Source: an uncultured Eubacteriales bacterium (GTDB taxonomy: Bacteria > Acidobacteriota > Aminicenantia > Aminicenantales > Aminicenantaceae). Taken from it: 64,000 nucleotides of DNA. Location of the stretch: assembly GCA_964440805.1 (NCBI GenBank), contig CAYTTR010000007.1, positions 9,795 to 73,794 on the forward strand. Reading direction: 5' to 3'. The position numbers and the translations under genes are program-made. The notes under the pieces were generated by a model, which saw only the letters and a program-made list of their open reading frames with translations, did no database searches and was not told where the DNA came from. Below, piece after piece: positions 18,840-60,624 of the stretch; positions within the stretch are counted from its first letter, which is position 1, and each line of letters starts with the position of its first letter.

Positions 18840-18971
18840 ACATGGTGACTTGAAATATGCGGATAATTAATTTTGAAAAAAGAGTAAAAATCCTGTTTAG
18901 TTTTTGTTAGAATACCTTCTTATCTGTTGCCACTTAGTGATGGATAAAAGGATAAATGTCATTCATTAAGC

Positions 18972-19064: not shown

Positions 19065-19230
19065 CTATCTAAACTTAAAGCACATTTTGACTCAACCGAA
19101 TAGACTGAACAGACGGAATAGACTTAATAGACATTTAAGCTAATTTTTATGGACAGTATTTCCTCTTAATAGCAATGAAAATGCTCACTTTCAATCTAAA
19201 TAAACCGAATAAACTTATTATAAATATTTC

Positions 19231-20310: not shown

Positions 20311-20352
20311 AGACAATGAGAATTATAATAAGAATATAAGCAGGGGAAGAAA

Positions 20353-26266: not shown

Positions 26267-26285
26267 TATTAAATAGAGGTTAAAA

Positions 26286-26660
26286 ATGTGGGTAAAATTA
26301 GTAATAATAATAATCGGTATTATTTTGATTTTTTTAGTTAACTGGTATTTCTTTTTTTCCGAAAGAAGTGAAGTTAAAATTGAAGCCGAAGAGACGGGAA
26401 TTCAAGAAGTAAAAATTACGATTAAGGGCGGATATGATCCGGATGTAATTGTGGTTAAGAAAGGAATTCCGGTTCGGTTGAACTTTTACAGGGATGAAAC
26501 GGCCGAATGTTCGGAAGAGGTTCAATTCGGGGATTTTGGGATTCGGAAAAAGCTGCAGGCGTTTCAGACAACCAGCCTTGAATTTACGCCGGAAAAAGAA
26601 GGGGAATATGTATTCACCTGCGGCATGGGGATGTTGAGAGGGAAAATGATAGTGAGGTGA
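26286..26660 (+). CDS. Cupredoxin-like (plastocyanin-fold) small membrane-anchored copper-binding protein
   Basis: N-terminal TM helix then EVKITIKGGYDPDVIVVKKGIPVRLNF...FTCGMGMLRGKMIV, i.e. the cupredoxin_1-type domain commonly found next to copA, with Cys/Met ligands. Confidence 0.6.
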   Translation: MWVKLVIIIIGIILIFLVNWYFFFSERSEVKIEAEETGIQEVKITIKGGYDPDVIVVKKGIPVRLNFYRDETAECSEEVQFGDFGIRKKLQAFQTTSLEFTPEKEGEYVFTCGMGMLRGKMIVR

Positions 26661-26737
26661 ATTTTTTTTGGCCTTATAATCTACTTAATTGATGGGAATA
26701 ATAAAATTCTCAGAAAAATCCATCAAGGAAGGATAGG

Positions 26738-29472: not shown

Positions 29473-29493
29473 GGAAGATTACCGGGGAGAAAA

Positions 29494-32400: not shown

Positions 32401-32625
32401 GAAAGAGTGCGGCCCAAGCTAATGACGGTTTCGACTACTATCGCCGGGCTGCTCCCAATTATGTGGGCCAGCGGGACCGGTTCCCAGGTAATGAAGAGAA
32501 TTGCTACCCCTATGGTAGGCGGTCTCTTAACATCGACTGCTCTGACTCTTATAGTAATTCCCGCCATATATTACCTTTGGAGAGGCAGGAGACTATTAGA
32601 GCTGGATAGAAGCCAAGATGAATGA
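29494..32625 (+). CDS. cusA: Heavy-metal efflux RND transporter, CusA/CzcA family
   Basis: 1043 aa, 12-TM RND architecture and HME-RND-type motifs (e.g. ...AIGAMVDAVVVMIEN..., ...GGLLTSTALTLIVIPAIY...). Confidence 0.9.
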   Translation: MIEKIIEWSVNNRILVITGVAALILAGFAAIKTTPIDAIPDLSDIQVIVFTEFQGQGPNVVEDQVTYPLTTAMLAVPKAKVVRGYSFFGLSMVYVIFEDGTDLYWARSRVLEYLNYAAGRLPQGITPQLGPDATGVGWVYEYVLDGGDRYDLQQLRSIQDWYLRYELASVPGVSELASVGGFVKQYQVEVDPLKLQAYNLSLQQVTRAIQRSNNDVGGRVLEMGETEFMVRGLGYIKSINDLKKVLVGMGPNNAPVFLEDVSHIHIGPELRRGIADWNGLGETVGGVVVMRYGENALKVIDRVKEKLEELKKGLPEGVTIKTAYDRSSLIKRAVATLKEKLVEEIVIVALVIVLFLLHLRSSLVAVITLPLGVLLSFVVMRAQGLNANIMSLGGIAIAIGAMVDAVVVMIENAHKHLEREDIAGRKDRWSLIIRSSKEVGPALFYSLLIITFSFLPVFTLQQQEGRLFKPLAFTKTYAMAGSAVLAITVVPVLMGIFIRGKVRSEKKHPLSRFLIKIYRPVIQFVLGHKVAVILGAVLIIALTVFPLSRIGSEFMPPLNEGDLLYMPTTLPGISVTKAKELLQQTDKIIAGFPEVESVFGKIGRAETATDPAPLTMIETTITLKSKDKWRPGMTMEKLIEELDRAVQFPGLTNAWTMPIKTRIDMLSTGIKTPVGIKLMGSDLQTLSDLGEEIEAVLRQVPGTASVISERVTGGNYLDFEINREAAGRYGLSVADVQEVIKSAIGGMNVATTVEGLQRYPVNVRYSRELRDDLTSLKRVLVSTPTGAEIPLSQLAELQIKKGPAMIKSENARRTAWLYIDLRDIDVGSYVKTARQAVYSSVAFPPGYSLAWSGQYEYMERAQQRLQLVVPVTLLIIFLLLYLNFKNITESLIIMLSLPFALVGGIWMMWLSGYNMSVAVGVGFIALAGVAAETGVVMLLYLDNAYKQRLKLSKMKSKKDLREAVVYGAVERVRPKLMTVSTTIAGLLPIMWASGTGSQVMKRIATPMVGGLLTSTALTLIVIPAIYYLWRGRRLLELDRSQDE

Positions 32626-47682: not shown

Positions 47683-49191
47683 TTACTGAGTTTTTTTCTT
47701 TTTTTCCGGGAAAAACTTGGACAACACTTCTTTTTCCGGCGGTTTAGTGAAGAAGGAAATAATTACCAGGCTTAACAGAGCTACACCAAGAGCAGGATAA
47801 ATTATAGGAATACCAAACGGATCTCCGTTGGGATCGCCCACGGGAACCATGATAGAAGGCCAGATATAGCCTGATAACTTAAGAAAGACAGTAATTATTG
47901 TTCCCGAGACTATTGAAACCAGTCCGGCAACCCTGGTGACTCTTTTAGATGCCAGGGCTCCAATAAGGGCGGGAGTAATAGCTGCTCCATAGATGGTATA
48001 AGCAAAATAAGCGCTTTCCAGGACTGAAGCCATTCTGGTAGCCATAATGTAAGCCAAAATTCCCAGGACTATTATCAAGCCTTTCTGCAGAATGACTTTT
48101 TTTCTTTCCTGAGCTTGGGTTTTTTCTGTTTCTTTTCTGATATAACGTACGTAAATATCCCTGATCATTGTTGTGGTCGGGGAAAGCAGGTAATTCATTC
48201 CGGTTGAAATCACTACGGCAGTGGCTGCACCCAGAAGAAGAACCCCAACCGGAAGAGGAATCATTCTTTTGGCTGCCTGAATGATTACTTCGGCAGCATC
48301 CATGGTGCCGCTTTGTATTTCAGGCCAGAAGTGGGCTGCAGCAAAAACTGCGATTACGATGGCTACGGTTTCCACAATAATAGTTCCAAAAACCCATAAT
48401 CCGGCTGCTTTCCGGGCCTCCTTGGGGGATCTGGCAGCATAAAATTTCTGGTACATGCTCTGGACTCCCAGGAGCAGGAGCAAGGTGGATAAGCCTATGG
48501 CCGGTATTTTTAAATATGGATTTCCCCCGAATTCCGAGCTAAATACATGGAAATGCGACTCAGGCAGAATTGTTTTTAGGGTGCTCCATCCTCCGGCTGC
48601 CCACATTACCAAGGGGGTAGAAAGAATGGTTGATGTAAGAATGATAATACCGTTGGGAAGGTCGGTATTGGCAACAGCAATCATTCCCCCTATAGCGGTG
48701 AAAAGTGTTACAAAAAGGAAAGCCATGAAAGTTCCCTGCTCCTGAGATATTTTTCCATCAGAGATGGCATTAAGAATATAACCACCAGCCTTGAATTGAT
48801 AGCTGACGATCACCGTAAAGCTTATAATAATGGCAATAGCTCCTACTATTCGGGCCAGGCTTCCATAGCGAACTTCGAGGATGTCTCCAACTGTGTATTG
48901 ACCGAATGTCCTTATTTTAAAGGCCAGAAAATATATGATAATAATTCCTATCCAGGCTCCAGCTGGAAGCCACAGAGAACTCCAGCCAGCTTTAACTGCA
49001 AATTCAGCGCCGGCAATAAAAGTTCCACTTCCAATCCAGGTACAGATAAGAGTGAATACCATTTTGTAGATGGGGATACTTCTGCCGGCTAGCATCATGT
49101 CGTCACTATCTTTTACTTGCCTGGATTTCCAGAAGTTCATTATGGTTAAAGCGACTAAGTAACAGAGGATAATGATAATGTAAGTATTCAT
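47683..49191 (-). CDS. Sodium:solute symporter family (SSF) transporter
   Basis: About 13 TM helices and SSF-type N-terminal region ...NFWKSRQVKDSDDMMLAGRSIP...GSGTFIAGAEFAVKAGW; 502 aa. Confidence 0.7.
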   Translation of the reverse strand: MNTYIIIILCYLVALTIMNFWKSRQVKDSDDMMLAGRSIPIYKMVFTLICTWIGSGTFIAGAEFAVKAGWSSLWLPAGAWIGIIIIYFLAFKIRTFGQYTVGDILEVRYGSLARIVGAIAIIISFTVIVSYQFKAGGYILNAISDGKISQEQGTFMAFLFVTLFTAIGGMIAVANTDLPNGIIILTSTILSTPLVMWAAGGWSTLKTILPESHFHVFSSEFGGNPYLKIPAIGLSTLLLLLGVQSMYQKFYAARSPKEARKAAGLWVFGTIIVETVAIVIAVFAAAHFWPEIQSGTMDAAEVIIQAAKRMIPLPVGVLLLGAATAVVISTGMNYLLSPTTTMIRDIYVRYIRKETEKTQAQERKKVILQKGLIIVLGILAYIMATRMASVLESAYFAYTIYGAAITPALIGALASKRVTRVAGLVSIVSGTIITVFLKLSGYIWPSIMVPVGDPNGDPFGIPIIYPALGVALLSLVIISFFTKPPEKEVLSKFFPEKKKKTQ

Positions 49192-49541
49192 TGCACTCTC
49201 CTTCTATTAAATAATAAAGAATTATCCTTTTATTCTTTTGTATTTATTTTTTAAGAAGAAAGCAATCATTTTTTTATATAAAAACAACAAAAATTTTAAC
49301 TGGATTTAAATTTTAAGTACTTTCCCCGCCGAGCCAGAAGTTAAATCAAGAATATTCTATAAAGTAAAATCTAAAATTTCAAATATCAAGTAAATCTTTT
49401 TGATTATCTTCCATTTATTTCAAGTATACCCTCTCAGCCAGTGGTTTTATCCAAAAAATATGGAAGAGAAACATTTTTTATCATCTTAATTTGGAAAAAA
49501 ATAATGAAAAAGATAGTTCTATTGGATATAATTGTCTTAGC

Positions 49542-49570
49542 TTGACAGGCAGATATGTTCATCTTAAAAT
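49542..49570 (+). promoter_or_regulatory. Consensus-like sigma-70 promoter TTGACA-N17-TAAAAT upstream of the sdh/rieske/kor operon
   Basis: TTGACA (49542-49547), 17-nt spacer, TAAAAT (49565-49570), about 90 bp upstream of the sdhC-like start at 49659. Confidence 0.45.
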
Positions 49571-49658
49571 TAGATGTCTATAAAAACGATAGAAAATATG
49601 TAGATTGGAGATGGTTTATTATTCTAAAATGGCAGTAAAAAAATAGAGGGGAGTTTTC

Positions 49659-49967
49659 ATGTTTGTCTGGATATTTCACAGGATTTCGGGGCTGCTTTTA
49701 ATTGTTCTCCTGACCATTAAATTCTTGACTTCATTTTTCTTAATGACTAAGGGACAAAAACCTGACTGGGCTCTTGTCCTTCATACCAATCCTCTTTCCG
49801 ATACCCTGCTTATCATAAGTGGTGTTTTCCATGCCTTTTATGGTCTGAGAACAATCATCCTTGATATGGGAATTCGTAGGGAAAAAACTTTATTCTGGAT
49901 TTTCACTTTCCTGGCCGGGCTGGCAAGTGTTCTGTTGCTTTTGCTCTACTTCACCCGGGATTATTGA
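49659..49967 (+). CDS. sdhC: Succinate dehydrogenase/fumarate reductase small membrane anchor (cytochrome b-like, 3 TM, conserved His)
   Basis: 102 aa with three hydrophobic helices and His residues (FHRISG, HTNPL, FHAFYG), immediately upstream of sdhA. Typical position and size for an Sdh membrane subunit. Confidence 0.55.
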   Translation: MFVWIFHRISGLLLIVLLTIKFLTSFFLMTKGQKPDWALVLHTNPLSDTLLIISGVFHAFYGLRTIILDMGIRREKTLFWIFTFLAGLASVLLLLLYFTRDY

Positions 49968-49968
49968 G

Positions 49969-51666
49969 ATGCTTTCTCATGATGTGCTCATTGTTGGAGG
50001 TGGACTGGCAGGCCTGTCAGCAGTTCTGAATATCAGCCCCTCGCTTGATGTAGCGGTTGTTTCCAAGGTTCATCCTCTTCGTTCTCATTCAGTAGCGGCC
50101 CAGGGTGGAATAAATGCAGCCCTGGGAAATCATCCTCAAGGACATGATGACAGTTGGGAAAAACATGCCTTTGATACCATCAAAGGAAGTGATTATTTAG
50201 CTGACCAGACTGCAGCCGAAATTATGTGCCAGAGAGCTGCCTCTGTTTTATATGAGCTGGAACATCTTGGTGTGCCCTTCAGCCGTTTTCCCGGAGGTGT
50301 TATTGCCCAGAGGCCATTTGGAGGGGCCGGCTTTCCCAGAACCTGCTATGCCGCTGACAAAACCGGTCTTGTTTTGCTCCATACATTGTACGAACAATCG
50401 CTAAGAAAGAATGTCAAATTTTATTCAGAATGGCTGGTTACAGAATTAGTGGTCAAGGATGGCCGGTGTTACGGAGTAGTGGTTTTTGATATGAAAAGCG
50501 GAAGCATACTTCCGGTAAAGGCGCGGGCAGTAGTTTTTGCTACCGGAGGATACGGACGTGTCTACCTTAAGTCCACTAATGCTTTAATTAATTTTGGGAG
50601 CGGCATAGGCATGGCCTATAGAGCAAAAATTCCCTTGAAGGACATGGAATTTGTTCAGTTTCATCCCACTTCCCTGTTTGGAAAAAACATTCTTATTACA
50701 GAGGGAGCCAGGGGAGAAGGGGGTTACCTTCTTAACAAAAAGGGAAAACGGTTCATGGCTGATTATGCCCCTTCTTCCATGGAGCTGGCTCCGCGGGATA
50801 TTGTAGCCCAGGCTATTCAGACAGAGATAGACAAGGGCAACGGCTTTGAAGGGCAATATGTTCACCTCGATCTCCGGCACCTGGGGAAAGAGAAGATACT
50901 CAAAAGGCTACCTGGTATTCGCGAAATATGTATTTATTTCGGAGGATTTGATCCGGTGGACACACCTATTCCCATTCAACCAGCCCAGCATTATTCCATG
51001 GGTGGAATCGATGTGAGTGAGAATTGTGCTTCTCCTGTTGAAGGCTTTTATGCCGCCGGAGAATGTGCTTGTGTCAGTGTCCATGGCGCCAACCGGCTGG
51101 GAGGAAATTCCCTGCTGGAAGCAGTGGTGTTTGGCAAAGTGGCTGGAGAGTCGGTCTCGGATTATGTCGAAGGGAGTTATGAAGACGAAGAAGGTGAAAA
51201 AACGATCCAGAAAAAAGCTGTTTGGCTTAGCAGAAAAGTGGATATGCTTATGAAAAAGAGGAGCGGTGAAAATGTTTACCACTTGTTACGGCAGTTGAAA
51301 GACTTGATGAGTGAAAAAGTTTGTATATTCCGCAATGAAAAAACCTTGAAAGAAGCGCTAACTGAAATCCATCAGCTCCGGGAAAAGTACAGGCAGGTTT
51401 ATATTTGCAGCGACTGCCTGACTTACTGCCAGGAGGTTATTACTTTGATTGAATTCGAATCCATGTTGGATATCTCTGAGGTGATAACACTTGGTGCCTT
51501 GAAGCGCCAGGAAACTCGTGGTTCTCACTGCCGGGTGGATTATCCCAAAAGAGATGATCAGAACTGGCTTAAACATACTCTCATGACAGACAGAGAAGGC
51601 AAGCCGCAGGAAAGTTACAAAGAAGTAATTGTTACCCGCTATAAACCCAGAGAAAGAAAGTACTGA
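49969..51666 (+). CDS. sdhA: Succinate dehydrogenase / fumarate reductase flavoprotein subunit (true start MLSHDVLIVGGG at 49969)
   Basis: DVLIVGGGLAGL Rossmann motif, RSHSVAAQGGINAA (covalent-FAD His region), and HPT...GGY/CxRxDYP motifs. The ORF-track start 49861 is an upstream in-frame extension overlapping sdhC. Confidence 0.9.
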   Translation: MLSHDVLIVGGGLAGLSAVLNISPSLDVAVVSKVHPLRSHSVAAQGGINAALGNHPQGHDDSWEKHAFDTIKGSDYLADQTAAEIMCQRAASVLYELEHLGVPFSRFPGGVIAQRPFGGAGFPRTCYAADKTGLVLLHTLYEQSLRKNVKFYSEWLVTELVVKDGRCYGVVVFDMKSGSILPVKARAVVFATGGYGRVYLKSTNALINFGSGIGMAYRAKIPLKDMEFVQFHPTSLFGKNILITEGARGEGGYLLNKKGKRFMADYAPSSMELAPRDIVAQAIQTEIDKGNGFEGQYVHLDLRHLGKEKILKRLPGIREICIYFGGFDPVDTPIPIQPAQHYSMGGIDVSENCASPVEGFYAAGECACVSVHGANRLGGNSLLEAVVFGKVAGESVSDYVEGSYEDEEGEKTIQKKAVWLSRKVDMLMKKRSGENVYHLLRQLKDLMSEKVCIFRNEKTLKEALTEIHQLREKYRQVYICSDCLTYCQEVITLIEFESMLDISEVITLGALKRQETRGSHCRVDYPKRDDQNWLKHTLMTDREGKPQESYKEVIVTRYKPRERKY

Positions 51667-52397
51667 TGATTTTTAGGTTTCATGTGTTCAGGTACAATCC
51701 GAAGAGGGACCGGCATCCTCGCTTTCAGATTTTTAATCATGAGGCCAGACTGGAAGATTCGGTCCTGGAAGCATTGATGTCTATCCGGGACCATCAGGAC
51801 TCATCCCTTTCCCTGCGCTATAGCTGCCGAGCTGCAGTTTGCGGCTCTTGCGGAATGGTAATCAACGGCCGGATTACTCTGGCCTGCCGGACAACTCTCG
51901 AATCCTTGAAAACAAATGAGATCACCGTGGAACCTCTCCCGAATCTTGAAGTCCAGAAAGATTTGATGGTAGATATGGAGCCATTCTGGGAAGCCTTGAA
52001 ATATGTTGAGCCATATCTTTTTTCCAGAAAAAAAAGACCGGAAAAAGGATACCGGATAGAGGAAGAAGAGATGGAGAAGATCTATCAGTTCATAAACTGT
52101 ATTATGTGCGGTTGTTGTTATAGTTCCTGTCCAGTGGTTACCCGGGATGATAGGTACATAGGTCCTGCCTCCTTAGCTAAATTGTTTCGCTTTATCAGGG
52201 ATACCCGGGATATCCGGCCTTTTTCCCGATGGTCAAAAATAGACCGTCCTGAAGGCGTTTGGAGCTGTGACACTGTGTTCCGTTGTAATGAGGTCTGCCC
52301 AAAGGAAGTTAGGCCGGCCGATGGAATTCAGGCTCTGCGAAGAAAATTGATAACTGAAAAAATAAAAGAATTATTCAGGAAAAGTAATGAAGATTAA
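51666..52397 (+). CDS. sdhB: Succinate dehydrogenase / fumarate reductase iron-sulfur subunit
   Basis: [2Fe-2S] motif SCRAAVCGSCGMVINGR, [4Fe-4S] CIMCGCCYSSCP and [3Fe-4S] CNEVCPKEV. The start overlaps the sdhA stop. Confidence 0.9.
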   Translation: MIFRFHVFRYNPKRDRHPRFQIFNHEARLEDSVLEALMSIRDHQDSSLSLRYSCRAAVCGSCGMVINGRITLACRTTLESLKTNEITVEPLPNLEVQKDLMVDMEPFWEALKYVEPYLFSRKKRPEKGYRIEEEEMEKIYQFINCIMCGCCYSSCPVVTRDDRYIGPASLAKLFRFIRDTRDIRPFSRWSKIDRPEGVWSCDTVFRCNEVCPKEVRPADGIQALRRKLITEKIKELFRKSNED

Positions 52398-52854
52398 ACA
52401 TTCTCTTTTCACCAGACGGCGTTTTTTGAACAGCTTGATTGGTGGCTGGGCGGCTGCCTTAGCGGCATCTTTTCTTCAACCGTTGCTGAAATTCGTTTTT
52501 CCTCCTTATAAGGAGCCAGATGAAGTTAGTTTGCCTTTAGCTGATTACCAGCTTCTCGAACCTAATTCATTTAAGAACTTTGCCTGGGGAAGCAAACCGG
52601 GAATTCTTCGCCGGAAGGAGGATGGAACATTTTCAGCCTTTGTAGGAGTCTGCACACATCTGGATTGCAATGTTACCTATCTCCCAGAGCAAAGAAAGTT
52701 CTACTGTGCCTGCCATGATGGCTGGTATGATGAAAGCGGCAGAAATATTCAGGGTCCTCCTCCTAAGCCCCTCCGTACCTTGCAGGTGGTTATTGAAGAA
52801 GAATTTATTCTAATCAAAAAAGAAGCAGCCAAGGGAAGTTCAAGTGGCAATTAA
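52387..52854 (+). CDS. Rieske [2Fe-2S] protein with Tat signal (bc/b6f-complex type)
   Basis: Twin-arginine leader FTRRRFLNSLIGGWAAAL; Rieske boxes CTHLDCNV and CACHDGWY with correct spacing. Confidence 0.85.
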   Translation: MKIKHSLFTRRRFLNSLIGGWAAALAASFLQPLLKFVFPPYKEPDEVSLPLADYQLLEPNSFKNFAWGSKPGILRRKEDGTFSAFVGVCTHLDCNVTYLPEQRKFYCACHDGWYDESGRNIQGPPPKPLRTLQVVIEEEFILIKKEAAKGSSSGN

Positions 52855-53908
52855 AAGTATCGGTGACTGGCTTGATGAACGGGCAGGTTGGGAACAAATC
52901 CTTCGCTTTTTAAGAAATAAAGAGGTTCCTCAACACAAGCACACTATCTGGTACTATACGGGAAGCGCCATTCTTGTTTTTTTCTTTATTCAGGTAATTA
53001 CCGGTGTTATGCTTCTTCTTTATTATAAACCGACTCTAAACCAAGCTCACCAGAGTGTGGAAAGGATTATGACCGAGATTCATTTTGGTTGGATTATCCG
53101 TTCCATTCATTCCTGGTCAGCCACTTTTATGATTGCTTTTGTCTTTGTTCACTTGTTAAGTATATGGCTTATGAAAGCTTACCGGAAACCAAGAGAGTTG
53201 ACCTGGGTGAGTGGAGTGTTTTTGCTGGTTGTATCCTTGGCCTTTGGTTTTACCGGTTATCTCCTTCCCTGGGATGAGTTATCACTGGCTGCAACCAAGG
53301 TGGGGACTGATATTCCCAGAACCATTCCCACAGTAGGAGACTGGGTGACCAAGTTCCTGAGGGGAGGAGAGGATGTTACTGGTGAGACCTTGACCAGGTT
53401 TTTCGGTTTTCATGTGAGTGTTTTACCTTTGCTTGTATTTATATTTATGGCCTTCCATATTTATCTTGTCCAGAAACACGGAATGAGTGTTCCTATTTCT
53501 GATGAATTAAAAAAGAAGAAAATTCCGTCTCTTCCCTTTTGGCCTAATTTTGTCTTCCGGGAGATGGGTTTCTGGCTGGTATTAATAGGATTTTTGGTGA
53601 CGATTGCTGTCCTTTTACCTCCAGGGCTTAGACCAGAGGCAGACTTAATGGCTCCCACTCCTGAAGGAATAAAACCTGAATGGTATTTCCTTTTTCTTTT
53701 CCAGACTTTGAAGCTTTTTCCAGCCAATGTCTTATTTATGTCCGGGGAGACTCTGGCCGTCCTGTTAATACTTTTGGGCGGGATGCTTTTCTTTCTTCTG
53801 CCTCTTATTGATAATAAGCCTGAAACAAAAAAAGGGAAAATCATTACTGCCCTGGCTTATATTTTTGTCTTTTACGCTGTAGTAATGTCTATCTGGAGTC
53901 TTTTGTGA
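52844..53908 (+). CDS. Cytochrome b of a Rieske/cytochrome b complex (fused cyt b6 + subunit IV-like)
   Basis: 354 aa multi-TM protein; cyt b N-terminal block ...YYTGSAILVFFFIQVITGVMLLLYYKP...IHFGWIIRSIHSWSATFM...VHLLSIW with conserved heme-ligand His positions, and PEWYFL motif in the C-terminal part. Confidence 0.8.
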   Translation: MAIKSIGDWLDERAGWEQILRFLRNKEVPQHKHTIWYYTGSAILVFFFIQVITGVMLLLYYKPTLNQAHQSVERIMTEIHFGWIIRSIHSWSATFMIAFVFVHLLSIWLMKAYRKPRELTWVSGVFLLVVSLAFGFTGYLLPWDELSLAATKVGTDIPRTIPTVGDWVTKFLRGGEDVTGETLTRFFGFHVSVLPLLVFIFMAFHIYLVQKHGMSVPISDELKKKKIPSLPFWPNFVFREMGFWLVLIGFLVTIAVLLPPGLRPEADLMAPTPEGIKPEWYFLFLFQTLKLFPANVLFMSGETLAVLLILLGGMLFFLLPLIDNKPETKKGKIITALAYIFVFYAVVMSIWSLL

Positions 53909-54213
53909 AACGGCAGAATATTTTCATCTGTTTCCTGATGATAATTATTTTAATACCTTCTGTTCTTCAGTCCGTGTCCTTTCAGGGCGTGACAAAGCAG
54001 GAAGTAATTAAAGAAAACAAAGAAGAAAGCAAAGAGGTTCAAGTTGGGCCACAGGATATTCAGGAGAAAACTTCGGTTTATTTTTTTCTGGGTTGGATGT
54101 GGTTTTCAATTGGCATTCTTGTCTATTTCCTCCGGATGAAAATAAAGGAGCTTGACAGGCTGACAAGCTACGGATACCAAGCAGGCCAAGGTGGTATAGA
54201 TGACAAAGAATAA
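53905..54213 (+). CDS. Small two-TM membrane protein of unknown function, translationally coupled within the sdh/rieske/kor operon
   Basis: Start overlaps cyt b stop (ATGA). N-terminal signal or TM then a second hydrophobic helix FFLGWMWFSIGILVYFL. No CxxCH heme-c motif. Confidence 0.4.
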   Translation: MKRQNIFICFLMIIILIPSVLQSVSFQGVTKQEVIKENKEESKEVQVGPQDIQEKTSVYFFLGWMWFSIGILVYFLRMKIKELDRLTSYGYQAGQGGIDDKE

Positions 54214-54517
54214 GGCGGTTAACGAGGCCAGAAGAAAAAAGATAGACCCGGTTATCACCTGGGCTCCTGAATACTGCAAACATTGTTTTACCTGTATCAA
54301 TATCTGTCCGGTGGATAATTTGAAGTTTGAAGGTGATGAGATGGTAAGTTTAAACAAATGCATCCAATGCCAGTTATGCATGAAATACTGCCCGGATTTT
54401 GCCATTGAAGTTCCCCCCAAAAAGAAGCCCCGGGAAAAAGTGATAAAAAACAAGGCAAAGTCAAGTGAAAATAAAGCATCCCAGACAACCAAGAAAAGCA
54501 TGGAGGCAGGTTCATAA
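54200..54517 (+). CDS. korD: 2-oxoacid:ferredoxin oxidoreductase delta subunit (2x[4Fe-4S] ferredoxin)
   Basis: CKHCFTCINICP and CIQCQLCMKYCP motifs, 105 aa, directly upstream of korA/korB, i.e. the typical delta-alpha-beta-gamma order. Confidence 0.75.
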   Translation: MTKNKAVNEARRKKIDPVITWAPEYCKHCFTCINICPVDNLKFEGDEMVSLNKCIQCQLCMKYCPDFAIEVPPKKKPREKVIKNKAKSSENKASQTTKKSMEAGS

Positions 54518-55533
54518 TGAAACGCCTGATTATGGGGAACGAAGCAGTTGCCCGTGGAGCCTTGAAGGCAGGAATGGATTTCTTTGCTGCCTATCCTATT
54601 ACTCCAGCTTCGGAAATAATGCATTTTTTGGCCGAAAAGGAGGGCGAAATAGAATTTGTCCATGCCGAAGACGAGATTGCTTCCATCCACATGGCAATCG
54701 GAGCAAGCTTGGCCGGGCGAAAAGCCTTGACCTCCACTTCAGGGCCGGGAATGTCTCTTAAACAAGAAGGGATCGGCCTGGCTCATATGATGGAAGTTCC
54801 TCTGGTCGTAGTTAATGTTCAGAGAGTTGGCCCAAGTACTGGTATGCCCACCCTTCCTTCTCAGGGAGATCTTCTCCAGACTCATTACGGGAGCCATGGT
54901 GATTATAATCCTATTGTCTTTTATCCGGCCTCTGTGGAGGAATGTTTTCGCTATACCATGGAAGCTTTCAATGTTTCTGAAGAGTCAAGAAGTCCGGTGG
55001 TTGTTCTTTTGGACGGATTTCTGGCCCACCTTTCAGAAACAGTGGATTTGACGAAGATTAGAGTTAAAGTTAAGCCGAAAGTCATTCCTCCTCTTAGCCG
55101 GGGGAAAAGGCATTTTACCGGTTTGCTGGCTAAAGATGGAGTACCGGTAACTGATGATACAGCCTATTACAGGGAATGGTATAATAGAGTTAAAAGCAAA
55201 ATTCATAGAGCGGTCAGGAATTGCCGTTTCTATGAATATCTTGAGAATAAAAGAAGCAACACAATGCTTATTGCCTATGGTATTACCGCCCGGGTCATCC
55301 GTCCTCTTAAAGAAAAATATTCTATTTTCCGGCCCATCCGTATGTTTCCTTTTCTCTCAGAGGAACTCGAACAAGCTGCCTCTAAACACCGGAAAATTGT
55401 GGTTGTGGAAATGAACGACGGCCAGTATGCAGGACAAGTGCAGAAAACACTAAAGAGGGAAGTCGTGTCTATTCCGGTGCTTGGTGGAAAAATTCATCTG
55501 AAAGAAATAAAAGAGGCTCTTAATGAACTATAA
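54517..55533 (+). CDS. korA: 2-oxoglutarate/2-oxoacid:ferredoxin oxidoreductase alpha subunit
   Basis: MKRLIMGNEAVARGALKAG...AAYPITPASEI...SGPGMSL...VPLVVVNVQRVGPSTGMPT is the conserved KorA/PorA N-terminal region; 338 aa. Confidence 0.85.
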   Translation: MKRLIMGNEAVARGALKAGMDFFAAYPITPASEIMHFLAEKEGEIEFVHAEDEIASIHMAIGASLAGRKALTSTSGPGMSLKQEGIGLAHMMEVPLVVVNVQRVGPSTGMPTLPSQGDLLQTHYGSHGDYNPIVFYPASVEECFRYTMEAFNVSEESRSPVVVLLDGFLAHLSETVDLTKIRVKVKPKVIPPLSRGKRHFTGLLAKDGVPVTDDTAYYREWYNRVKSKIHRAVRNCRFYEYLENKRSNTMLIAYGITARVIRPLKEKYSIFRPIRMFPFLSEELEQAASKHRKIVVVEMNDGQYAGQVQKTLKREVVSIPVLGGKIHLKEIKEALNEL

Positions 55534-56257
55534 AGATTATATCAAGTGGGAGAGGATGCCTACTACCTGGTGTGCCGGTTGTTCCATTGGTATTGTTTTC
55601 AAGCAGCTTGCTTTTTCTCTTGAACATATGCTAATCCTTAGAGATAAACTTACAGTAATTTCCGGAATCGGTTGCAGCGGCCGGGCAGCTGGATATTTCG
55701 ATGTAGACAGCGTTCATGTTACTCATGGACGAGCCCTGCCCGTAGCTGAAGGCATAAAAAGAGGAAACAAGGAACTGAATGTCATTGTTTTCAGTGGAGA
55801 TGGGGATCTGGTCGGCATAGGAGGCAACCATCTCCTTCACACTTCCCGCCGCAACATTGATATGACTGTCATCTGTATTAACAATGAAATCTACGGCATG
55901 ACGGGAGGACAGATGGCACCAACAACCAAAGAAAAAGCCAAAACCTTGACCAGTCCCCATGGGAATATTTACAGCCCGTTGAATCTGCAGGGAATCATTA
56001 CTTCCAATGCCAGATATTTTTATGCCAGATGTTCGGCTTTTAATCTCAATCATCTGCAAAAGGCTATTAAAGAAGCCATTGAATGGAAAGGCTTTGCCTT
56101 TCTTGATGTGGCCTCTTTTTGTCTTGAAAATTATGGGCGAAGACTGGGTTTCAAAAATGGTTATGAAATGCTCTTTCAATTGAAAAAAGATTTCAAGCTT
56201 AACCGTAATCCGGAAGGCTTATTGAAAGACAATGAATTGGGGATTTTGAAAAAATGA
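55523..56257 (+). CDS. korB: 2-oxoacid:ferredoxin oxidoreductase beta subunit (TPP-binding)
   Basis: WCAGCSIG... GIGCSGRAAGY...GDGDLVGIGGNHLLHTSRRN...MTGGQ includes the TPP-binding GDGD motif and the Cys cluster ligands. Confidence 0.85.
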   Translation: MNYKDYIKWERMPTTWCAGCSIGIVFKQLAFSLEHMLILRDKLTVISGIGCSGRAAGYFDVDSVHVTHGRALPVAEGIKRGNKELNVIVFSGDGDLVGIGGNHLLHTSRRNIDMTVICINNEIYGMTGGQMAPTTKEKAKTLTSPHGNIYSPLNLQGIITSNARYFYARCSAFNLNHLQKAIKEAIEWKGFAFLDVASFCLENYGRRLGFKNGYEMLFQLKKDFKLNRNPEGLLKDNELGILKK

Positions 56258-57264
56258 AAATTCGGCGTGCAAAACCTGAAGAATGTAAGCCTGTTAACAA
56301 GCTTATGGAAATGGTGATTGATGAAATCTATGCCCGGGAACCGGAGAAGGTGAGGAAAACTCTAAAGGCAAATTTTACTCAGGAGGCTCTAAAGGAGCTC
56401 TGTAAAGAAGAGCAGTCATTACTCTATGTGGCAGAAGAAAAAGAATTAATTGTTGCCTTTCTCTTTGGCTGGTTTTTTCATAATATTTTCACTATTTATT
56501 GGATTTATACCCTGAAGGAATACCGGGGCAAAGGGATTGTTAAAGAATTGATGGGATATGCTGAAAAAGAGGTTCTTAAAATGGGCTGTTACAAAATTGA
56601 AATGTATGTCTATGCTGAGCATAACCGGTTTCTAAATTTCTGTTCCAAGCTGGGATTTAAAAAGGGACCGCTGCTTAGGAAAAACATGTTTGGAGTTAAA
56701 ATACGCCATATTTATAAATACATCGGTGATTACCAAAAGGCTCAAAAAGAGAAAAAAATAAAGATAATAGGAGAAGCCGGCCAGGGCGTAAAGCTGCTAT
56801 CTTTTACCCTGGCCTCAATTCTTTCCCAACTGGGAAATGAGGTTTCTCTTAACCTCGAGTATGATGCTGCTGTCCGCAGCGGAACCATCAGTGCTGATTT
56901 GATTTATTCTGATGAAAAGATCGAGAATCCAATTATTGACGAAGCTGATGTTCTCATTAAGTTCACCCGGACCAGGGACTGGTTTCCAGCTAGGAGTCTG
57001 GTCATTGATGAGAGTATATGTGAGCCTGAGCCTCTGAGCTGTGAGATTAAAAGTTGGAAAGGGACCTTCTATGGTTTTGAGAATGTAGCCATTACCAGGT
57101 TCGGAAGCAAGATGTATATTAATATGATTGCCCTGGGAAGGATTCTCCGCTATATTGGGATAAATATCATGATTATAAACATCAAGGACCTGCTTCCTCC
57201 CAAAACCTTAGAGAAAAACCTGGCTGCAATAAAGTACGGATTCAACTATCGTGACGCAGTTTAA
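56254..57264 (+). CDS. korC: Fusion protein: N-terminal GNAT acetyltransferase domain + C-terminal 2-oxoacid:ferredoxin oxidoreductase gamma subunit
   Basis: Residues about 1-155 have GNAT motif A (YRGKGIVKELMGYAEKEVLKMG) and a Q/R-x-x-G-x-G/A-like arrangement. Residues about 165-336 (KIKIIGEAGQGVKLLSFTLASILSQLGNEVS...) match the KorC/PorG gamma subunit. Start overlaps the korB stop. Confidence 0.65.
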   Translation: MKIRRAKPEECKPVNKLMEMVIDEIYAREPEKVRKTLKANFTQEALKELCKEEQSLLYVAEEKELIVAFLFGWFFHNIFTIYWIYTLKEYRGKGIVKELMGYAEKEVLKMGCYKIEMYVYAEHNRFLNFCSKLGFKKGPLLRKNMFGVKIRHIYKYIGDYQKAQKEKKIKIIGEAGQGVKLLSFTLASILSQLGNEVSLNLEYDAAVRSGTISADLIYSDEKIENPIIDEADVLIKFTRTRDWFPARSLVIDESICEPEPLSCEIKSWKGTFYGFENVAITRFGSKMYINMIALGRILRYIGINIMIINIKDLLPPKTLEKNLAAIKYGFNYRDAV

Positions 57265-57849
57265 TCAATAAGATAAATTTGAAAGCACAGCGTTTTCCGT
57301 GATAGAGTTTCTTTATTTAAAGAGAGGAAGGGTATGGAATTCGTTACCCGCTCGATTCCTTAGTGAGGAATCTTGCTCCCGCTCGGGTTTCGCTCTCCTC
57401 TCCTCCGGAGAGGAACCATACCCGCTCATCCCTCACAGTGGATTTCTCATCCCTTGCCATTCCTCTCCTCACGGTTTTGGAATTGCTTTCCATAAATCTT
57501 ATTAATTGGATGATTTAGTATATAACTATAAAATAATATGATTATTGAAAAATATATTTTGCTTGACAATCTCCGATAAATACAGATATTATGAAGCCTT
57601 ATTTGCTTTTATGAAGGATAGAAAGTTCAGTTAAAAGGAGATATCGCTCTTTATATTAATGGCTGGACTGAGCTTGAGCTTATTGTGATATAAGTATTCT
57701 GCCTGTTTGTTTTGACTTCTCCAGGAATCTTTGTTATACCATTTCCTCATGTCAATGGTCACTATCTCTTCAGGTGACACCCATCCCCTAAAAGAAAGCA
57801 GCGTATTTAACAATTCGTTTTTTATTCAATTTATAGCGAGGAGGTTTTC

Positions 57850-60624
57850 ATGAGTTTTCACAAAAAAATAATTTTTCATTTTTTCTTAGTTTTATTACTT
57901 TCAGCAATTCTCTATTCATCTGAGGATATTACCACTCCAGCTGACTTTTTCGGCCATTCTATAGGCGATGATTATTTTCTGGCCAATTATACCCAGATGA
58001 TATCTTACTGGGAAAAGTTAGCTCAGGAGTCTGAACGGTTGGAGCTTTTTTCCATTGGAAAAACAGCTGAAGGCAGGAAGATATGGATGGCAGTGGTTAC
58101 TTCTGCTGAAAACCACAAAGAACTTTCCCTCTACCAGGAAATATCAAAAAAACTGGCTTTGGCCGAAGGCTTAAATGACCAGGAAGCACGAAAATTGGCT
58201 TCTCAAGGCAAGGCAGTAGTCTGGATTGACGGCGGACTTCACGGCACTGAAGTACTTGGTGCTCAGCAGCTTATTGAGCTTGTCTATCAAATGGTAAGCC
58301 GCAATGACCCGGAAACTCTGCGCATTCTTAATGATGTAATTCTCTTAGCGGCCTGTCCCAATCCGGATGGAATGGAGCTTGTCTCCAACTGGTACATGCG
58401 TCAGCAGGATCCACAAAAAAGAACAACTCGAGGACTTCCCGTGCTCTACCAGAAATATATCGGTCATGATAACAACCGTGATTTCTATATGGTTACCCAA
58501 CCCGAGACAGAAGCAGTCTGCCGGGTTTTTTACCACCAATGGTTTCCTCAAATAGTCTATAACCATCATCAGACCGGTCCTTCAGGAACAGTTCTTTTTG
58601 CTCCTCCTTTCCGTGATCCGTTTAACTATGTCTATGACCCTCTTGTTCCGGTGGGAATAGAGGTGGTGGGAGCAGCCATGCACAACCGTTTTGTGTCTGA
58701 AAATAAGCCGGGAGCCACTATGCGTTCCGGAGCCGGCTATTCTACCTGGTGGAATGGAGGATTAAGGACTACCGTTTATTTCCATAATATGATAGGAATT
58801 TTAACCGAAACTATCGGCAATCCAACTCCCATAGAAATTCCTTTTCTTCCCCAGAAGCTACTCCCTTCATTTGATCTTCCTTACCCTATAATGCCCCAGA
58901 AGTGGCATTTCCGCCAGTCGGTTGAATACGCTATAACTGCCGATAAAGCTATTCTGGATATTGCCTCAAGACATAAAGAAGGGTTTCTTTACAATATCTA
59001 CCAGATGGGCAGAAATTCCATTCGGAAAGGGACGCAGGACACCTGGACTATTATTCCGGATTTTATCAAAGAGGTAGAAGATGCTATTAAAAAGGACAAA
59101 GCCGAAATGATCGGCTCGGGAAGGCAAAGAGGATATCCTCTGGAATACCTGAAGACTATCCGGGATCCTGACAAACGGGATCCCCGGGGATATATTATTC
59201 CTTCAAATCAGCCGGATTTTCTTACTGCTGTAAAGTTCGTCAATGCTCTTATCAAAACCGGAGTCAGAGTTCTTAAAGCCCCCAATGATTTCCAGATAGA
59301 AGAGAAGAATTACCCTACCGGCTCTCTTGTTGTTATGACCGCTCAAGCTTTCCGGCCGCACATTCTTTCCATGTTCGAGCCCCAGAATCATCCTGATGAC
59401 CGCTTATATCCAGGCGGTCCTCCCAATCCTCCCTATGACAGTGCCGGCTGGACTCTTGCTTACCAGATGGGGGTTGAATTCGACCGGATTCTTGATGGAT
59501 TTGAAGGTCCTTTTGAAAAAATAGAAGGATTGATAGAGCCACCGGCTGGAAAAATAAGAGGAAAAGAGAGTGTTTCCGGCTATCTTCTTGACCACCGGGT
59601 TAATGATTCTTTTGTGGTTGTAAACCGCCTTCTTAAATCTGGAGCGGAGGTTTATTGGTTGAAAAATGGGATTTCTGTGGAAAACACATATTTTCCAACG
59701 GGTACAATTTATATTCCCGCCAAAGATTCTCTAAAACCAATTATAGAAAAAGCGGCCGGGGAATTAGGCCTCAATTTTACCGGAGTAAAAAACAAACCTG
59801 AGGGTGAAGCTTTGGAGTTAAATAAAGTGAGGATAGGCCTTTGGGACCGTTATGGGGGATCTATGGATTCCGGCTGGATAAGGTGGATTTTGGAACAATT
59901 TGAATTTCCCTATGAGCTTGTTTTTGCTAAGCGTTTGGATGAAGGGAACATCCGGCAAAAATATGATGTTTTAATTTTTGTTAATAGAGCTATCCCGGAG
60001 AAAGATAGAAGAGAAGACGAATGGTCCCGCTACTTCCAGCCTCCCAAACCCGAAGAAGTACCCCCTGAATATAGAGATCGCCTGGGTGAAATCACTATAG
60101 AAAAGACTGTTCCTCAATTAGCTGAGTTTCTAAAGGAGGGAGGGACTATTCTCGCTCTGGGAAGTTCCACTTGCCTTGCTTATCACCTTGGCCTGCCGGT
60201 AAAAGATGGCTTGACGGAAGTCTTAGCTGATGGAACTGTAAGGCCGCTTCCCAGAGACAAATTTTTTATTCCTGGTTCTGTTCTTGAAGTAAGAGTAAAT
60301 AATTCCAGCCCTCTGGCTTATGGCCTGCCGGATAGGGTCGATGTTTATTTCAACCGCAGCTCTGTTTTTCACTTGACTCCTGAGGCTTCAGTTAAAGAAC
60401 TTCAACCAGTTGCCTGGTTTGATAAAGACAAACCCCTGCGCAGCGGCTGGGCCTGGGGCCAGCATTACTTGAAGAACGGAACCGCAGTCTTGGAATGCAA
60501 GGTAGGAAAAGGAAATCTTTTCCTTTTTGGACCAGAGATAACCTTTAGGGCTCAGCCCCATGGAACTTTCAAGTTCCTGTTCAATGGCATTTACTACGGA
60601 CAGGCTTCAGAAAAAAGGTTTTGA
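57850..60624 (+). CDS. Secreted M14-family zinc carboxypeptidase with about 550-aa C-terminal extension
   Basis: Signal peptide, then an M14 catalytic core with Zn ligands HGTE (WIDGGLHGTEVLG), NPDG and a downstream His (YNHHQTG). Total 924 aa, far longer than the roughly 300-aa catalytic domain. Confidence 0.7.
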   Translation: MSFHKKIIFHFFLVLLLSAILYSSEDITTPADFFGHSIGDDYFLANYTQMISYWEKLAQESERLELFSIGKTAEGRKIWMAVVTSAENHKELSLYQEISKKLALAEGLNDQEARKLASQGKAVVWIDGGLHGTEVLGAQQLIELVYQMVSRNDPETLRILNDVILLAACPNPDGMELVSNWYMRQQDPQKRTTRGLPVLYQKYIGHDNNRDFYMVTQPETEAVCRVFYHQWFPQIVYNHHQTGPSGTVLFAPPFRDPFNYVYDPLVPVGIEVVGAAMHNRFVSENKPGATMRSGAGYSTWWNGGLRTTVYFHNMIGILTETIGNPTPIEIPFLPQKLLPSFDLPYPIMPQKWHFRQSVEYAITADKAILDIASRHKEGFLYNIYQMGRNSIRKGTQDTWTIIPDFIKEVEDAIKKDKAEMIGSGRQRGYPLEYLKTIRDPDKRDPRGYIIPSNQPDFLTAVKFVNALIKTGVRVLKAPNDFQIEEKNYPTGSLVVMTAQAFRPHILSMFEPQNHPDDRLYPGGPPNPPYDSAGWTLAYQMGVEFDRILDGFEGPFEKIEGLIEPPAGKIRGKESVSGYLLDHRVNDSFVVVNRLLKSGAEVYWLKNGISVENTYFPTGTIYIPAKDSLKPIIEKAAGELGLNFTGVKNKPEGEALELNKVRIGLWDRYGGSMDSGWIRWILEQFEFPYELVFAKRLDEGNIRQKYDVLIFVNRAIPEKDRREDEWSRYFQPPKPEEVPPEYRDRLGEITIEKTVPQLAEFLKEGGTILALGSSTCLAYHLGLPVKDGLTEVLADGTVRPLPRDKFFIPGSVLEVRVNNSSPLAYGLPDRVDVYFNRSSVFHLTPEASVKELQPVAWFDKDKPLRSGWAWGQHYLKNGTAVLECKVGKGNLFLFGPEITFRAQPHGTFKFLFNGIYYGQASEKRF

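Follow-up and report, generated by a model that had tools for sequence, protein, structure and literature searches.

Complex II and the Rieske/cytochrome b complexes are held to communicate only via the quinone pool. In E. coli, succinate dehydrogenase (SDH) is co-transcribed with the NAD-dependent enzyme that oxidises 2-oxoglutarate, in the operon sdhCDAB-sucABCD, and the dihaem, menaquinone-dependent succinate:quinone reductase of Bacillus subtilis uses the membrane potential for the endergonic reduction of menaquinone. Rieske/cytochrome b pairs that are co-encoded with a specific oxidoreductase, either instead of a conventional cytochrome c1 or alongside one, and for which a dedicated electron route has been suggested, are found in the anammox operons R/b-2 and R/b-3 and in the haloarchaeal nar operon (NarB/NarC), while the petCB operon of green sulfur bacteria has no cytochrome c1 gene and no linked SDH, its acceptors being known cytochromes encoded elsewhere. 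Sdh2 of Mycobacterium smegmatis likewise faces the endergonic step from succinate to menaquinone, driven by the membrane potential, and its haem ligands are His C87/D107 for haem bP and His C47/D65 for haem bD (PMC7447783). The mycobacterial Sdh1 (class F, 7D6V) is a complex II with a Rieske-type cluster (PMC8054011, PMC10238741), which is held inside the six-helix anchor subunit (PMC10238741). Here we analyse a ten-gene operon of an uncultured Aminicenantia bacterium (contig CAYTTR010000007.1 of assembly GCA_964440805.1), located in the 64,000-nucleotide stretch from position 9,795 to 73,794 of the contig, hereafter called the window. The operon unites genes for an enzyme of the SDH/fumarate reductase (FRD) type, a Rieske/cytochrome b pair and a 2-oxoacid:ferredoxin oxidoreductase (kor genes). 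The best explanation overall, to which we give an even chance, is that it encodes a hybrid six-gene membrane enzyme and, co-transcribed with it, a soluble 2-oxoglutarate:ferredoxin oxidoreductase (OGOR).

The ten genes follow one another on the forward strand from 49659 to 57264 in the order sdhC-like, sdhA, sdhB, Rieske, cytochrome b, orf6, korD, korA, korB and GNAT::korC (Table 1). In the list of open reading frames (ORFs) every junction abuts or overlaps, the distances from the stop codon to the next start being, from gene 1 to gene 10, +1, −1, −11, −11, −4, −14, −1, −11 and −4 nt, and each of the ten starts is preceded by a purine-rich stretch. The start of sdhA is the ATG at 49969, one base past the sdhC stop; the upstream TTG at 49861 is a mechanical ORF call. 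Position 49542 begins the first hexamer of a putative, sigma-70-like promoter, and between this site and the sdhC-like gene lie a leader of approximately 88 nt and a strong Shine-Dalgarno sequence, AGAGGGGAG. For comparison we used contigs with cytochrome b homologues together with a one-genome-per-species scan scored with the ten proteins of the window, which is a sample and not a census; the related loci are designated by L numbers. Over the last ~160 nt of the intergenic region upstream of sdhC, the identity to L004, the closest relative, is 74%. An Rfam scan of the whole window detected no RNA family, and no known riboswitch or leader was found in the 467-nt upstream region.

Since the genes overlap, there is no space for intergenic terminators. 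Promoter-like matches inside the operon (22, compared with 16.7 ± 4.2 in shuffled sequence) and terminator-like matches (8, compared with 8.8 ± 2.9) showed no excess, although this type of scan is weak. An earlier note on this stretch, made from the letters alone, had raised internal promoters or terminators as a concern for a single conserved operon; the scans lend no support to this concern, and the tight junctions together with the recurrence of the array in relatives bear out the operon. The ten abutting or overlapping genes that it had listed were recovered in the ORF list and in the junction distances, and its domain assignments agreed gene by gene with Pfam and NCBIfam. Its junction coordinates were likewise right overall, except that '54254/56257' should read 56254/56257. 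We conclude that the ten genes almost certainly form one operon.

Table 1 Features of the ten-gene operon (positions in the window)
Feature	Position	Strand	Support
Putative promoter, TTGACA-17-TAAAAT	49542..49570	+	11/12 positions match; best site within 49000-58000
SdhC-like haem-b membrane anchor, 102 aa, three predicted transmembrane helices	49659..49967	+	Pfam Sdh_cyt, E 3.6e-9
SdhA/FrdA flavoprotein, 565 aa	49969..51666	+	TIGR01812, 769.7 bits (cut-off 567.3)
SdhB/FrdB iron-sulfur subunit, 243 aa	51666..52397	+	NF004616, 266.3 (cut-off 228); TIGR00384, 242.3 (cut-off 88)
Rieske [2Fe-2S] protein, 155 aa	52387..52854	+	Pfam Rieske and TM_PetC
Cytochrome b, 354 aa, b6 and subunit IV fused	52844..53908	+	Pfam Cytochrome_B and Cytochrom_B_C
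orf6, small conserved membrane protein, 102 aa	53905..54213	+	No Pfam family
KorD/OorD-like delta subunit, 105 aa	54200..54517	+	Fer4 families; weak PorD_KorD and OorD matches
KorA alpha subunit, 338 aa	54517..55533	+	POR_N, E 1.2e-58; PRK08659, 335.9 bits (cut-off 411)
KorB beta subunit, TPP-binding, 244 aa	55523..56257	+	TPP_enzyme_C, E 8.5e-29
GNAT::KorC gamma fusion, 336 aa	56254..57264	+	Acetyltransf_1, 45.9 (cut-off 20.7); POR, 47.9 (cut-off 27.4)

The flavoprotein SdhA consists of the Pfam domains FAD_binding_2 and Succ_DH_flav_C and carries the motif RSHS at residues 38-41 (nt 50080-50091); in R-S-H-S/T motifs of this kind the histidine is the site of covalent FAD attachment. Its top match in the Protein Data Bank (PDB) is SdhA of M. 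smegmatis Sdh2 (E 3e-147), followed by SdhA of E. coli, with SdhA of Sdh1 far lower. An assignment as L-aspartate oxidase or as soluble flavocytochrome was rejected, as the protein passes the cut-off for SdhA/FrdA and falls far short of theirs. SdhB contains the cysteine motifs for the 2Fe-2S, 4Fe-4S and 3Fe-4S clusters (CRAAVCGSC, CIMCGCCYSSCP and C-x6-C-x3-CP, the last read from the translation). The SdhA score, the RSHS histidine, an SdhB with three clusters and the histidine for haem bP are thus those of a complex II, whereas the anchor belongs to none of the described classes. Their anchors consist of two subunits with three transmembrane (TM) helices (classes A, C and D), of one subunit with five or six TM helices (B and F) or of SdhE/F (E). 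Here the sole SDH anchor gene of each locus encodes one 3-TM Sdh_cyt protein, and no sdhD was present in the window or in any relative read. The earlier note was right to call the anchor sdhC-like, and what it had missed is that SDH has just a single small subunit of this kind here.

The best solved relative of this anchor is SdhC of M. smegmatis Sdh2 (6lum_C), with SdhD a weaker match. Histidine H58, which is invariant in 34 sequences, aligns with the bP ligand His87 of M. smegmatis SdhC, and an invariant lysine, K21, occupies the position of the Sdh2 bD ligand His47. The complete set of invariant residues in the 34 unique homologues comprises H7, R8, K21, PDWA35-38, H42, H58, G62, R64 and T65. 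Of these, H42 lies in an invariant loop on the outer face (KPDWALxLH) that has no counterpart in Sdh2 and is missing from a family with fused SdhB and Rieske domains (see below), which retains cytochrome c.

The start of the Rieske gene overlaps the stop of sdhB by 11 nt. Its product has a twin-arginine translocation (Tat) motif RRRF (residues 10-13), the cluster motifs CTHLDC (89-94) and CACH (107-110) and a PetC-like TM anchor. The top PDB matches are PetC proteins of b6f complexes, and two anammox-type Rieske structures are also among the matches. The second cluster motif reads CACHDG, with a glycine in place of the potential-raising serine of the ubiquinol and plastoquinol enzymes; glycine at this site is typical of menaquinol-type centres near +100 mV. 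Seven TM helices were predicted for cytochrome b in a TM scan. Its haem ligands are H89/H103 and H190/H205 (spacings 13 and 14, the helix-D histidines being 14 residues apart), and the Qo motif PEWY is at residues 278-281. The alignment shows no variation in PEWY, in the four histidines that bind haem or in the Rieske ligands. The protein has no cysteine, and therefore no covalently bound haem ci. Cyanobacterial b6 is its best solved relative (E 5e-60, residues 5-218); it scores below the cut-off of the cytochrome b6 model PRK03735 (231.7, cut-off 325), and the Rieske protein likewise stays below the cut-off of the NCBIfam PetC model. Homologues of cytochrome b with identities of about 70% number in the thousands, and the named ones are from Candidatus Aminicenantes.

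The next gene, orf6, had been reported simply as a membrane protein of 102 aa; it is indeed present, and in addition it is a conserved subunit, which had escaped notice. From the N-terminus, the protein consists of a signal or anchor helix, a variable stretch rich in acidic residues and lysine, a conserved TM helix and a tail RxKIKExDR. It contains no histidine, and its single cysteine lies within the signal helix, leaving no possible haem ligand. In almost every window-type locus read, L012 and L013 among them, the gene comes after cytochrome b; L009 has no such ORF. In a library of 1.8 billion proteins, 126 cluster representatives match at E<1e-3, all of 64-255 aa and all via the C-terminal TM part. 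By this pattern of conservation orf6 is a real, conserved and family-specific subunit. That it might be a degenerate cytochrome c or SdhD was rejected, since there is no histidine and no usable cysteine; a weak NCBIfam match to cytochrome c550 spans the signal helix only.

None of the ten proteins contains a CxxCH, CxxxCH, CxxxxCH or CxxCK motif, and the only real CxxCH ORF in the window is a Fer4_22 iron-sulfur protein (12083-13207). Among the matches listed, a CxxCH ORF on the same strand within 4 kb of cytochrome b was found in 0 of 13 window-type loci, and in Rieske/cytochrome b loci without sdh such an ORF was fused to cytochrome b or at most 4 kb away in ~65 of 73. When both strands of the window-type loci were read (71 loci plus the window, 834 kb), c-type cytochrome genes turned up in one locus, L100. 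The earlier claim that no c-type cytochrome is encoded thus stands, and it describes the whole clade. The haem-c maturation motif WGxxWxWD had no match in 80 related loci, which is uninformative because these cover operon neighbourhoods only. As to the affinity of the pair, a point that the earlier note had left to phylogeny, cytochrome b is b6-like and the Rieske protein PetC-like, and in a neighbour-joining tree of the b6-like part (190 columns) the sdh-linked cytochromes b form one clade beside clades that bear cytochrome c. The sister clades are flanked by multihaem cytochromes. Since the sdh-linked clade sits beside cytochrome-c-bearing clades in the tree, the loss of cytochrome c, as read from this topology, is coincident with the gain of sdhCAB and orf6.

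The block from the sdhC-like gene to orf6 was present in every Aminicenantes-type locus examined (cytochrome b identity to the window 61-80%; orf6 absent in L009). It also occurs in two metagenome-assembled genomes, L012 and L013, labelled Syntrophus sp. and Proteobacteria, with cytochrome b identities of 46-47%. In L001, L002 and L007-L013 the block is complete (save for orf6 in L009) and no kor genes are attached; several of these loci, one of them in a complete genome of 4.4 Mb, have unrelated genes (RadC, FTHFS) after the block. The full ten-gene array was found in three contigs with differing flanks (GNAT::gamma identity 84, 71 and 66%), and in the metagenome scan cytochrome b/orf6 lay directly upstream in 37 of 40 informative loci with GNAT-type kor genes. 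Because the ten-gene order recurs in these 37 loci with different flanks, the arrangement is, on comparative grounds, far beyond chance. Conservation of the operon in relatives, which had been named as a check, is therefore confirmed for the array. A restriction of the ten-gene form to a narrow subclade was considered and rejected, as contigs and metagenome loci show a wide spread.

The three exceptions (~60% identity) are stand-alone korD-A-B-GNAT::C loci (L141:5492-9558, L142:1125-6039 and L147:4711-7478). In L141 and L142, where the contig continues, the genes sucC and sucD of succinyl-CoA synthetase directly follow kor, and both pass curated cut-offs. The three loci seemingly belong to a different lineage. 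Their existence suggests that the GNAT::gamma fusion predates, or is independent of, the link to the sdh-Rieske/cytochrome b genes. As the block occurs without kor and kor without the block, the kor enzyme appears to be an accessory soluble neighbour and not a required partner. The inherited unit is thus the six genes and not the ten that had been proposed; we hold with high confidence that the six genes are an evolutionary and functional unit, of which the ten-gene form is, by its distribution, a widespread and stable extension. Genes nuoL/M/N adjoin the array in four relatives, upstream in tandem in L090 (1-3360) and downstream in convergent orientation in L108, L119 and L133, so that respiratory genes cluster further in some relatives.

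A second association of SDH/FRD-type proteins with a Rieske/cytochrome b pair was found in a distant cytochrome b clade. Among the matches listed, this four-gene family of Desulfobacterota and Acidobacteriota metagenome-assembled genomes is represented by L039:2012-6790 (Syntrophaceae), L072:6430-11410 (Desulfotignum) and L076:660-5627 (Acidobacteriota). The genes encode, in this order, an SdhA-like protein, an SdhC-like protein, SdhB::Rieske (413-458 aa) and, as one polypeptide, cytochrome b with a monohaem cytochrome c. The SdhB::Rieske protein contains the domains Fer2_3, Fer4_8 and Rieske, arranged as SdhB, linker, RR motif, TM helix and Rieske domain, a topology that would leave SdhB on the cytoplasmic side, with the Rieske cluster on the outside. 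This architecture is common to at least 120 protein clusters (52-88% identity), whose annotations say no more than 'succinate dehydrogenase iron-sulfur subunit' or 'Rieske domain protein'. The anchor is again a single SdhC-like protein and has histidines at both the bP and the bD position. The flavoprotein is TfrA-like, with a cysteine read in place of the flavinylated histidine. Neighbouring genes encode class I fumarase/mesaconase-like and glutamate mutase-like proteins, which may point to a connection with the methylaspartate pathway or to a substrate other than fumarate. SDH/FRD-type enzymes thus seem to have become attached to Rieske/cytochrome b at least twice, once covalently. The SdhB::Rieske fusions argue that SDH/FRD and Rieske/cytochrome b can form one complex, and by analogy the fusion is the strongest argument that the sdhB-Rieske pair of the window may act as one. 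The idea of the earlier note that Rieske/cytochrome b is tied directly to SDH/FRD gains independent support from this other clade.

The four kor genes encode all four subunit types of the enzyme, alpha (POR_N), beta (TPP_enzyme_C), gamma (POR) and a delta subunit with two [4Fe-4S] motifs. The latter read CxxCxxCxxxCP and lie at nt 54275-54310 and 54359-54394 of korD. Residues ~72-105 of KorD form a lysine-rich low-complexity tail, PPKKKPREKVIKNKAKSSENKASQTTKK; the delta subunit varies in length from 76 to 112 aa among relatives, and the tail is therefore not conserved. The PDB matches of KorA are 1yd7, 8ys5 (2-oxoglutarate synthase alpha) and 6n2n. KorB has the motif GDG at residues 92-94, and its best NCBIfam model is PRK09628 (2-oxoglutarate ferredoxin oxidoreductase beta), with 211 bits at a cut-off of 364. 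In GNAT::KorC the acetyltransferase domain spans residues ~30-140 and the gamma domain ~165-333. The GNAT domain retains the CoA-binding motif RGKGI (residues 91-95, of the R/Q-x-x-G-x-G/A type), of which R91 and G94 are invariant in the alignment, and the best NCBIfam match of the gamma domain is again below the cut-off (41.2, cut-off 235). Of 272 homologues of the fusion, nearly all of the 120 listed are 336 aa long, at 64-99% identity. An AlphaFold2 model from a 10-sequence alignment was too poor for a fold search (mean pLDDT 56.7, gamma half <50). In a Pfam domain scan the kor subunits showed no membrane or docking features. Because the stand-alone GNAT-type kor loci precede sucC/sucD genes that score above curated cut-offs, the enzyme is, judged by this gene context, most likely a 2-oxoglutarate:ferredoxin oxidoreductase of the Oor/Kor type.

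To account for these features, we propose that the six proteins of the block would assemble into one membrane enzyme, a hybrid of the respiratory complexes II and III, which would connect succinate/fumarate to menaquinone via the Qo and Qi sites of cytochrome b and would be coupled to the proton motive force. Within this association, inferred for the window family, a homodimer of the SdhC-like anchor would carry haem b across the membrane or towards its outer face, and would thereby replace cytochrome c1/f as the partner of the Rieske protein. The anchor haem would be that partner because, if the module is self-contained, it is the only outer-face candidate encoded in the block. The presence of an outer-face histidine in the family without cytochrome c and its absence where cytochrome c is kept is suggestive of such a contact. 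Electrons would pass between succinate, FAD, the three FeS clusters, the SdhC haem(s), the Rieske cluster and Qo, with the second electron moving via haems bL and bH to or from Qi. The enzyme encoded by kor would remain outside the membrane complex as a soluble, ferredoxin-dependent OGOR, co-transcribed with sdh because it catalyses a neighbouring redox step in the tricarboxylic acid (TCA) cycle. A physical complex of SDH with Rieske/cytochrome b appears rather probable by analogy with the fusions; the specific electron path and its direction are put forward much more tentatively.

The direction can be considered from the potentials of menaquinone (about -74 mV) and of the fumarate/succinate couple (about +30 mV). 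A full Q cycle with electrons returning to the cytoplasmic face would move an estimated ~four charges per two electrons, and by an estimate from textbook potentials ~0.2 eV is available in the fumarate-reducing direction. Wired in this way, the enzyme would run only from succinate to menaquinone at normal membrane potential, because ~four charges stand against ~0.2 eV. It would be a 'reverse Q cycle', in which the proton motive force is spent to push succinate electrons into menaquinone. The reductive-TCA or fumarate-respiration segment hinted at in the earlier note goes beyond the evidence, as the direction of the enzyme is not readable from sequence.

Two conventional, separate enzymes and an OGOR in a co-regulated TCA/respiratory operon would be another reading of the same genes, and we consider it possible, if on balance somewhat unlikely. 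Here the SDH would be a complex II with an unusual homodimeric anchor, and the Rieske protein would pass its electrons to an acceptor encoded elsewhere, a mono- or multihaem cytochrome c, a high-potential iron-sulfur protein or a cupredoxin. Mixed TCA/respiratory operons are common; sdhCDAB-sucABCD of E. coli is one, so that the co-transcription of SDH with an enzyme for 2-oxoglutarate is, contrary to the earlier note, in principle not unusual, and green sulfur petCB lacks a cytochrome c1 gene. The nuoLMN genes beside the array in four relatives are in line with such an operon, as are the multihaem cytochromes flanking the sister clades, by which partners of this type were present in the history of the lineage, and those directly downstream of the array in L100. 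An earlier genome paper, cited in PMC4897734, lists simply 'Complex I, II and III' for a Rifle Aminicenantes, which also fits separate complexes. What two separate enzymes leave unexplained is that sdhD is missing in both SDH-linked families, that the loss of cytochrome c falls in precisely the clade that acquired sdh, that a new small subunit, orf6, is co-conserved, and that SDH joined Rieske/cytochrome b twice, once as the covalent SdhB::Rieske; nor do they explain why c-type cytochromes are entirely missing from 70 of the 71 neighbourhoods sampled (834 kb). An energy-conserving menaquinol:fumarate reductase, with Rieske/cytochrome b as quinol-oxidising anchor and both electrons delivered to fumarate, would serve fumarate respiration, and we regard it as unlikely. 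The organism is apparently an anaerobic amino-acid fermenter with complex I nearby, for which fumarate would be a classic electron sink; the TfrA-like flavoprotein of the fusion family has no flavinylated histidine, which we interpret as typical of reduce-only enzymes; and the invariant buried lysine of anchor helix I could serve a proton path. Such a compensating proton path would cut the net yield to ~two charges or fewer per two electrons, and even so the ~105 mV gap between menaquinol and fumarate barely pays for one or two. SdhA of the window, moreover, keeps the RSHS histidine, which permits succinate oxidation, and neither the operon nor the window contains a gene for aspartase or fumarase.

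The earlier note had gone further and hinted at a supercomplex. In such a device all three modules would act together and might bifurcate electrons: of those released at Qo, one would go to fumarate via SDH/FRD and the other via the b haems towards ferredoxin and KOR, powering a reductive-TCA segment that leads from fumarate to 2-oxoglutarate. The 14-nt overlap of korD with orf6 in the window, the position of kor behind the block in 37 of the 40 informative loci and the unusual lysine-rich KorD tail could be taken in this sense, and bifurcation has been proposed for anammox Rieske/cytochrome b operons with extra flavoprotein subunits. The block is, however, complete without kor in L001, L002 and L007-L013, GNAT-type kor stands without the block beside sucCD, and the KOR subunits have neither membrane nor docking features. 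From textbook potentials, with fumarate (+30 mV) taken as the high-potential acceptor for menaquinol (-74 mV), we calculated that the low-potential electron reaches only ~-180 mV, far above ferredoxin or the 2-oxoglutarate couple. With a dispensable, elsewhere stand-alone and soluble KOR and potentials that fall short of ferredoxin, the supercomplex is very improbable. For the hybrid of complexes II and III itself, several observations weigh on the other side. Locus L100 has five multihaem cytochrome c genes with 4 to 15 CxxCH motifs each (11153-20712), the first of them on the same strand and 145 nt after GNAT::korC. In the encoded protein an NrfH-like N-terminus is joined to a C-terminal part like the cytochrome b FdnI, and by these domains it resembles a quinol dehydrogenase in its own right. 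A cytochrome c gene just downstream in a relative, which had been raised as an objection to the whole idea, therefore exists in this one case, while the other 70 loci have none. The fusion clade differs from the window family in its TfrA-like flavoprotein and in keeping cytochrome c, which makes it an analogy and not a homology of the association. The lysine K21 stands in place of the distal-haem histidine, so that a haem wire spanning the membrane is not assured, and the reverse Q cycle would cost ~four protons per succinate where ~one is needed. Green sulfur bacteria, finally, possess Rieske/cytochrome b operons that lack cytochrome c and have their acceptors encoded elsewhere. A hybrid that is fully self-contained, with succinate/fumarate replacing cytochrome c as the partner of the Rieske protein and with the fusions as a second, independent version, is in our estimation rather doubtful.

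If its features hold up, the locus would be a case of respiratory complexes recombined into a dedicated enzyme in widespread anaerobes; at stake are an SDH minus half its anchor, a Rieske/cytochrome b pair minus cytochrome c and, in parallel, a single SdhB-Rieske polypeptide across the membrane. This bears on the succinate/fumarate step in menaquinone-using anaerobes and syntrophs, and on a Q cycle that is driven in reverse by, or delivers electrons to, a cytoplasmic dehydrogenase. It also bears on the annotation of Aminicenantes and Desulfobacterota, in which 'complex II and III' are now read as a sign of aerobic respiration. A self-contained hybrid, if true, would be a new answer to the endergonic oxidation of succinate by menaquinone. 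It would also echo the Q cycle as Mitchell first drew it, with succinate dehydrogenase passing its electrons straight to the cytochrome b complex (PMC5600118). Being compact (six genes, or four when fused), the module lends itself to heterologous expression and cryogenic electron microscopy. A search of published full text, from which most subscription journals are excluded, returned no sdh-Rieske/cytochrome b operon, no Rieske/cytochrome b partnered with SDH/FRD and no SdhB::Rieske fusion.

Outside the operon, the window contains genes for two aldehyde:ferredoxin oxidoreductases (AFOR), for iron-sulfur flavoproteins of the HdrA/Nfn-like kind, for histidine ammonia-lyase and several peptidases, and for a sodium:solute symporter and copper efflux systems; no cytochrome c or oxidase gene was found in its 64 kb. 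Such a gene content agrees with the proposal that Aminicenantes live anaerobically by fermenting peptides and sugars. The AFOR genes (2777-4552 and 14592-16538, both on the reverse strand) lie within 14 kb and flank a two-component sensor pair. Between them, at 8689-14021, is a cluster of iron-sulfur flavoproteins (HdrA-like, Fer4_22 and NAD_binding_1/DHODB-type), and the AFOR region is a second ferredoxin-level redox island of the window. A copper/silver resistance island (23873-32625, forward strand) encodes a P-type ATPase with YHS and HMA domains and, after it, an outer-membrane factor, a CusB-like adaptor carrying a heavy-metal-binding domain, and an RND pump. At 34616-42552 (forward strand) a gene for a bacterial alpha-2-macroglobulin of 1890 aa overlaps the start of a gene for a class A penicillin-binding protein (transglycosylase and transpeptidase), which is the known A2M-Pbp1C pairing. 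The operon is followed by a non-coding gap of 585 nt (57265-57849) with a G+C-richer stretch (about 57330-57500) and, at 57563-57592, another strong promoter-like site. At the position of this gap L004 has MEDS/PAS sensor genes, and weak conservation is confined to the ~140 nt that precede the M14 peptidase gene; the G+C-richer stretch may be the remnant of a deleted regulator.

Compared with described systems, the kor genes have the same D-A-B-C order as oorDABC of Helicobacter pylori. The operon as a whole follows the logic of E. coli sdhCDAB-sucABCD, of which it would be an anaerobic counterpart, but the window uses a ferredoxin-dependent four-subunit enzyme with a GNAT domain on gamma, places Rieske/cytochrome b between sdh and kor, and has no succinyl-CoA synthetase in the operon. 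Among solved structures, SdhA and the anchor are closest to M. smegmatis Sdh2 (6LUM), and the histidine that ligates haem bP is conserved. Whereas Sdh2 consists, besides its catalytic part, of SdhC, SdhD and SdhF with two bis-His haems, the window has one 3-TM anchor with a lysine at the position of the distal haem, and its block also encodes Rieske/cytochrome b and orf6, translationally coupled. Sdh1 has no bc-type cytochrome b, and the Rieske protein of the window is, unlike the cluster of Sdh1, a separate Tat-exported, PetC-like subunit of a full pair. This pair resembles the b6f complex and the b6c complexes of Firmicutes and heliobacteria in its b6-like N-terminus, the helix-D histidines 14 residues apart, PEWY and a Tat-dependent PetC-like Rieske protein; it differs from them in the lack of cytochrome f/c, in the fusion of b6 with subunit IV and in the absence of the haem ci cysteine. 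Like the petCB operon of green sulfur bacteria it has no c-type cytochrome gene, but in the clade of the window the loss coincides with the gain of sdhCAB and orf6. In the anammox and haloarchaeal modules the partners of Rieske/cytochrome b are NAD(P)-linked flavoproteins, hydroxylamine oxidoreductase-like proteins or nitrate reductase, whereas in the window the proposed partner is SDH/FRD. Judged from the sequences, all parts of the proposed enzyme come from known families, yet their assembly fails a defining feature of each parent complex.

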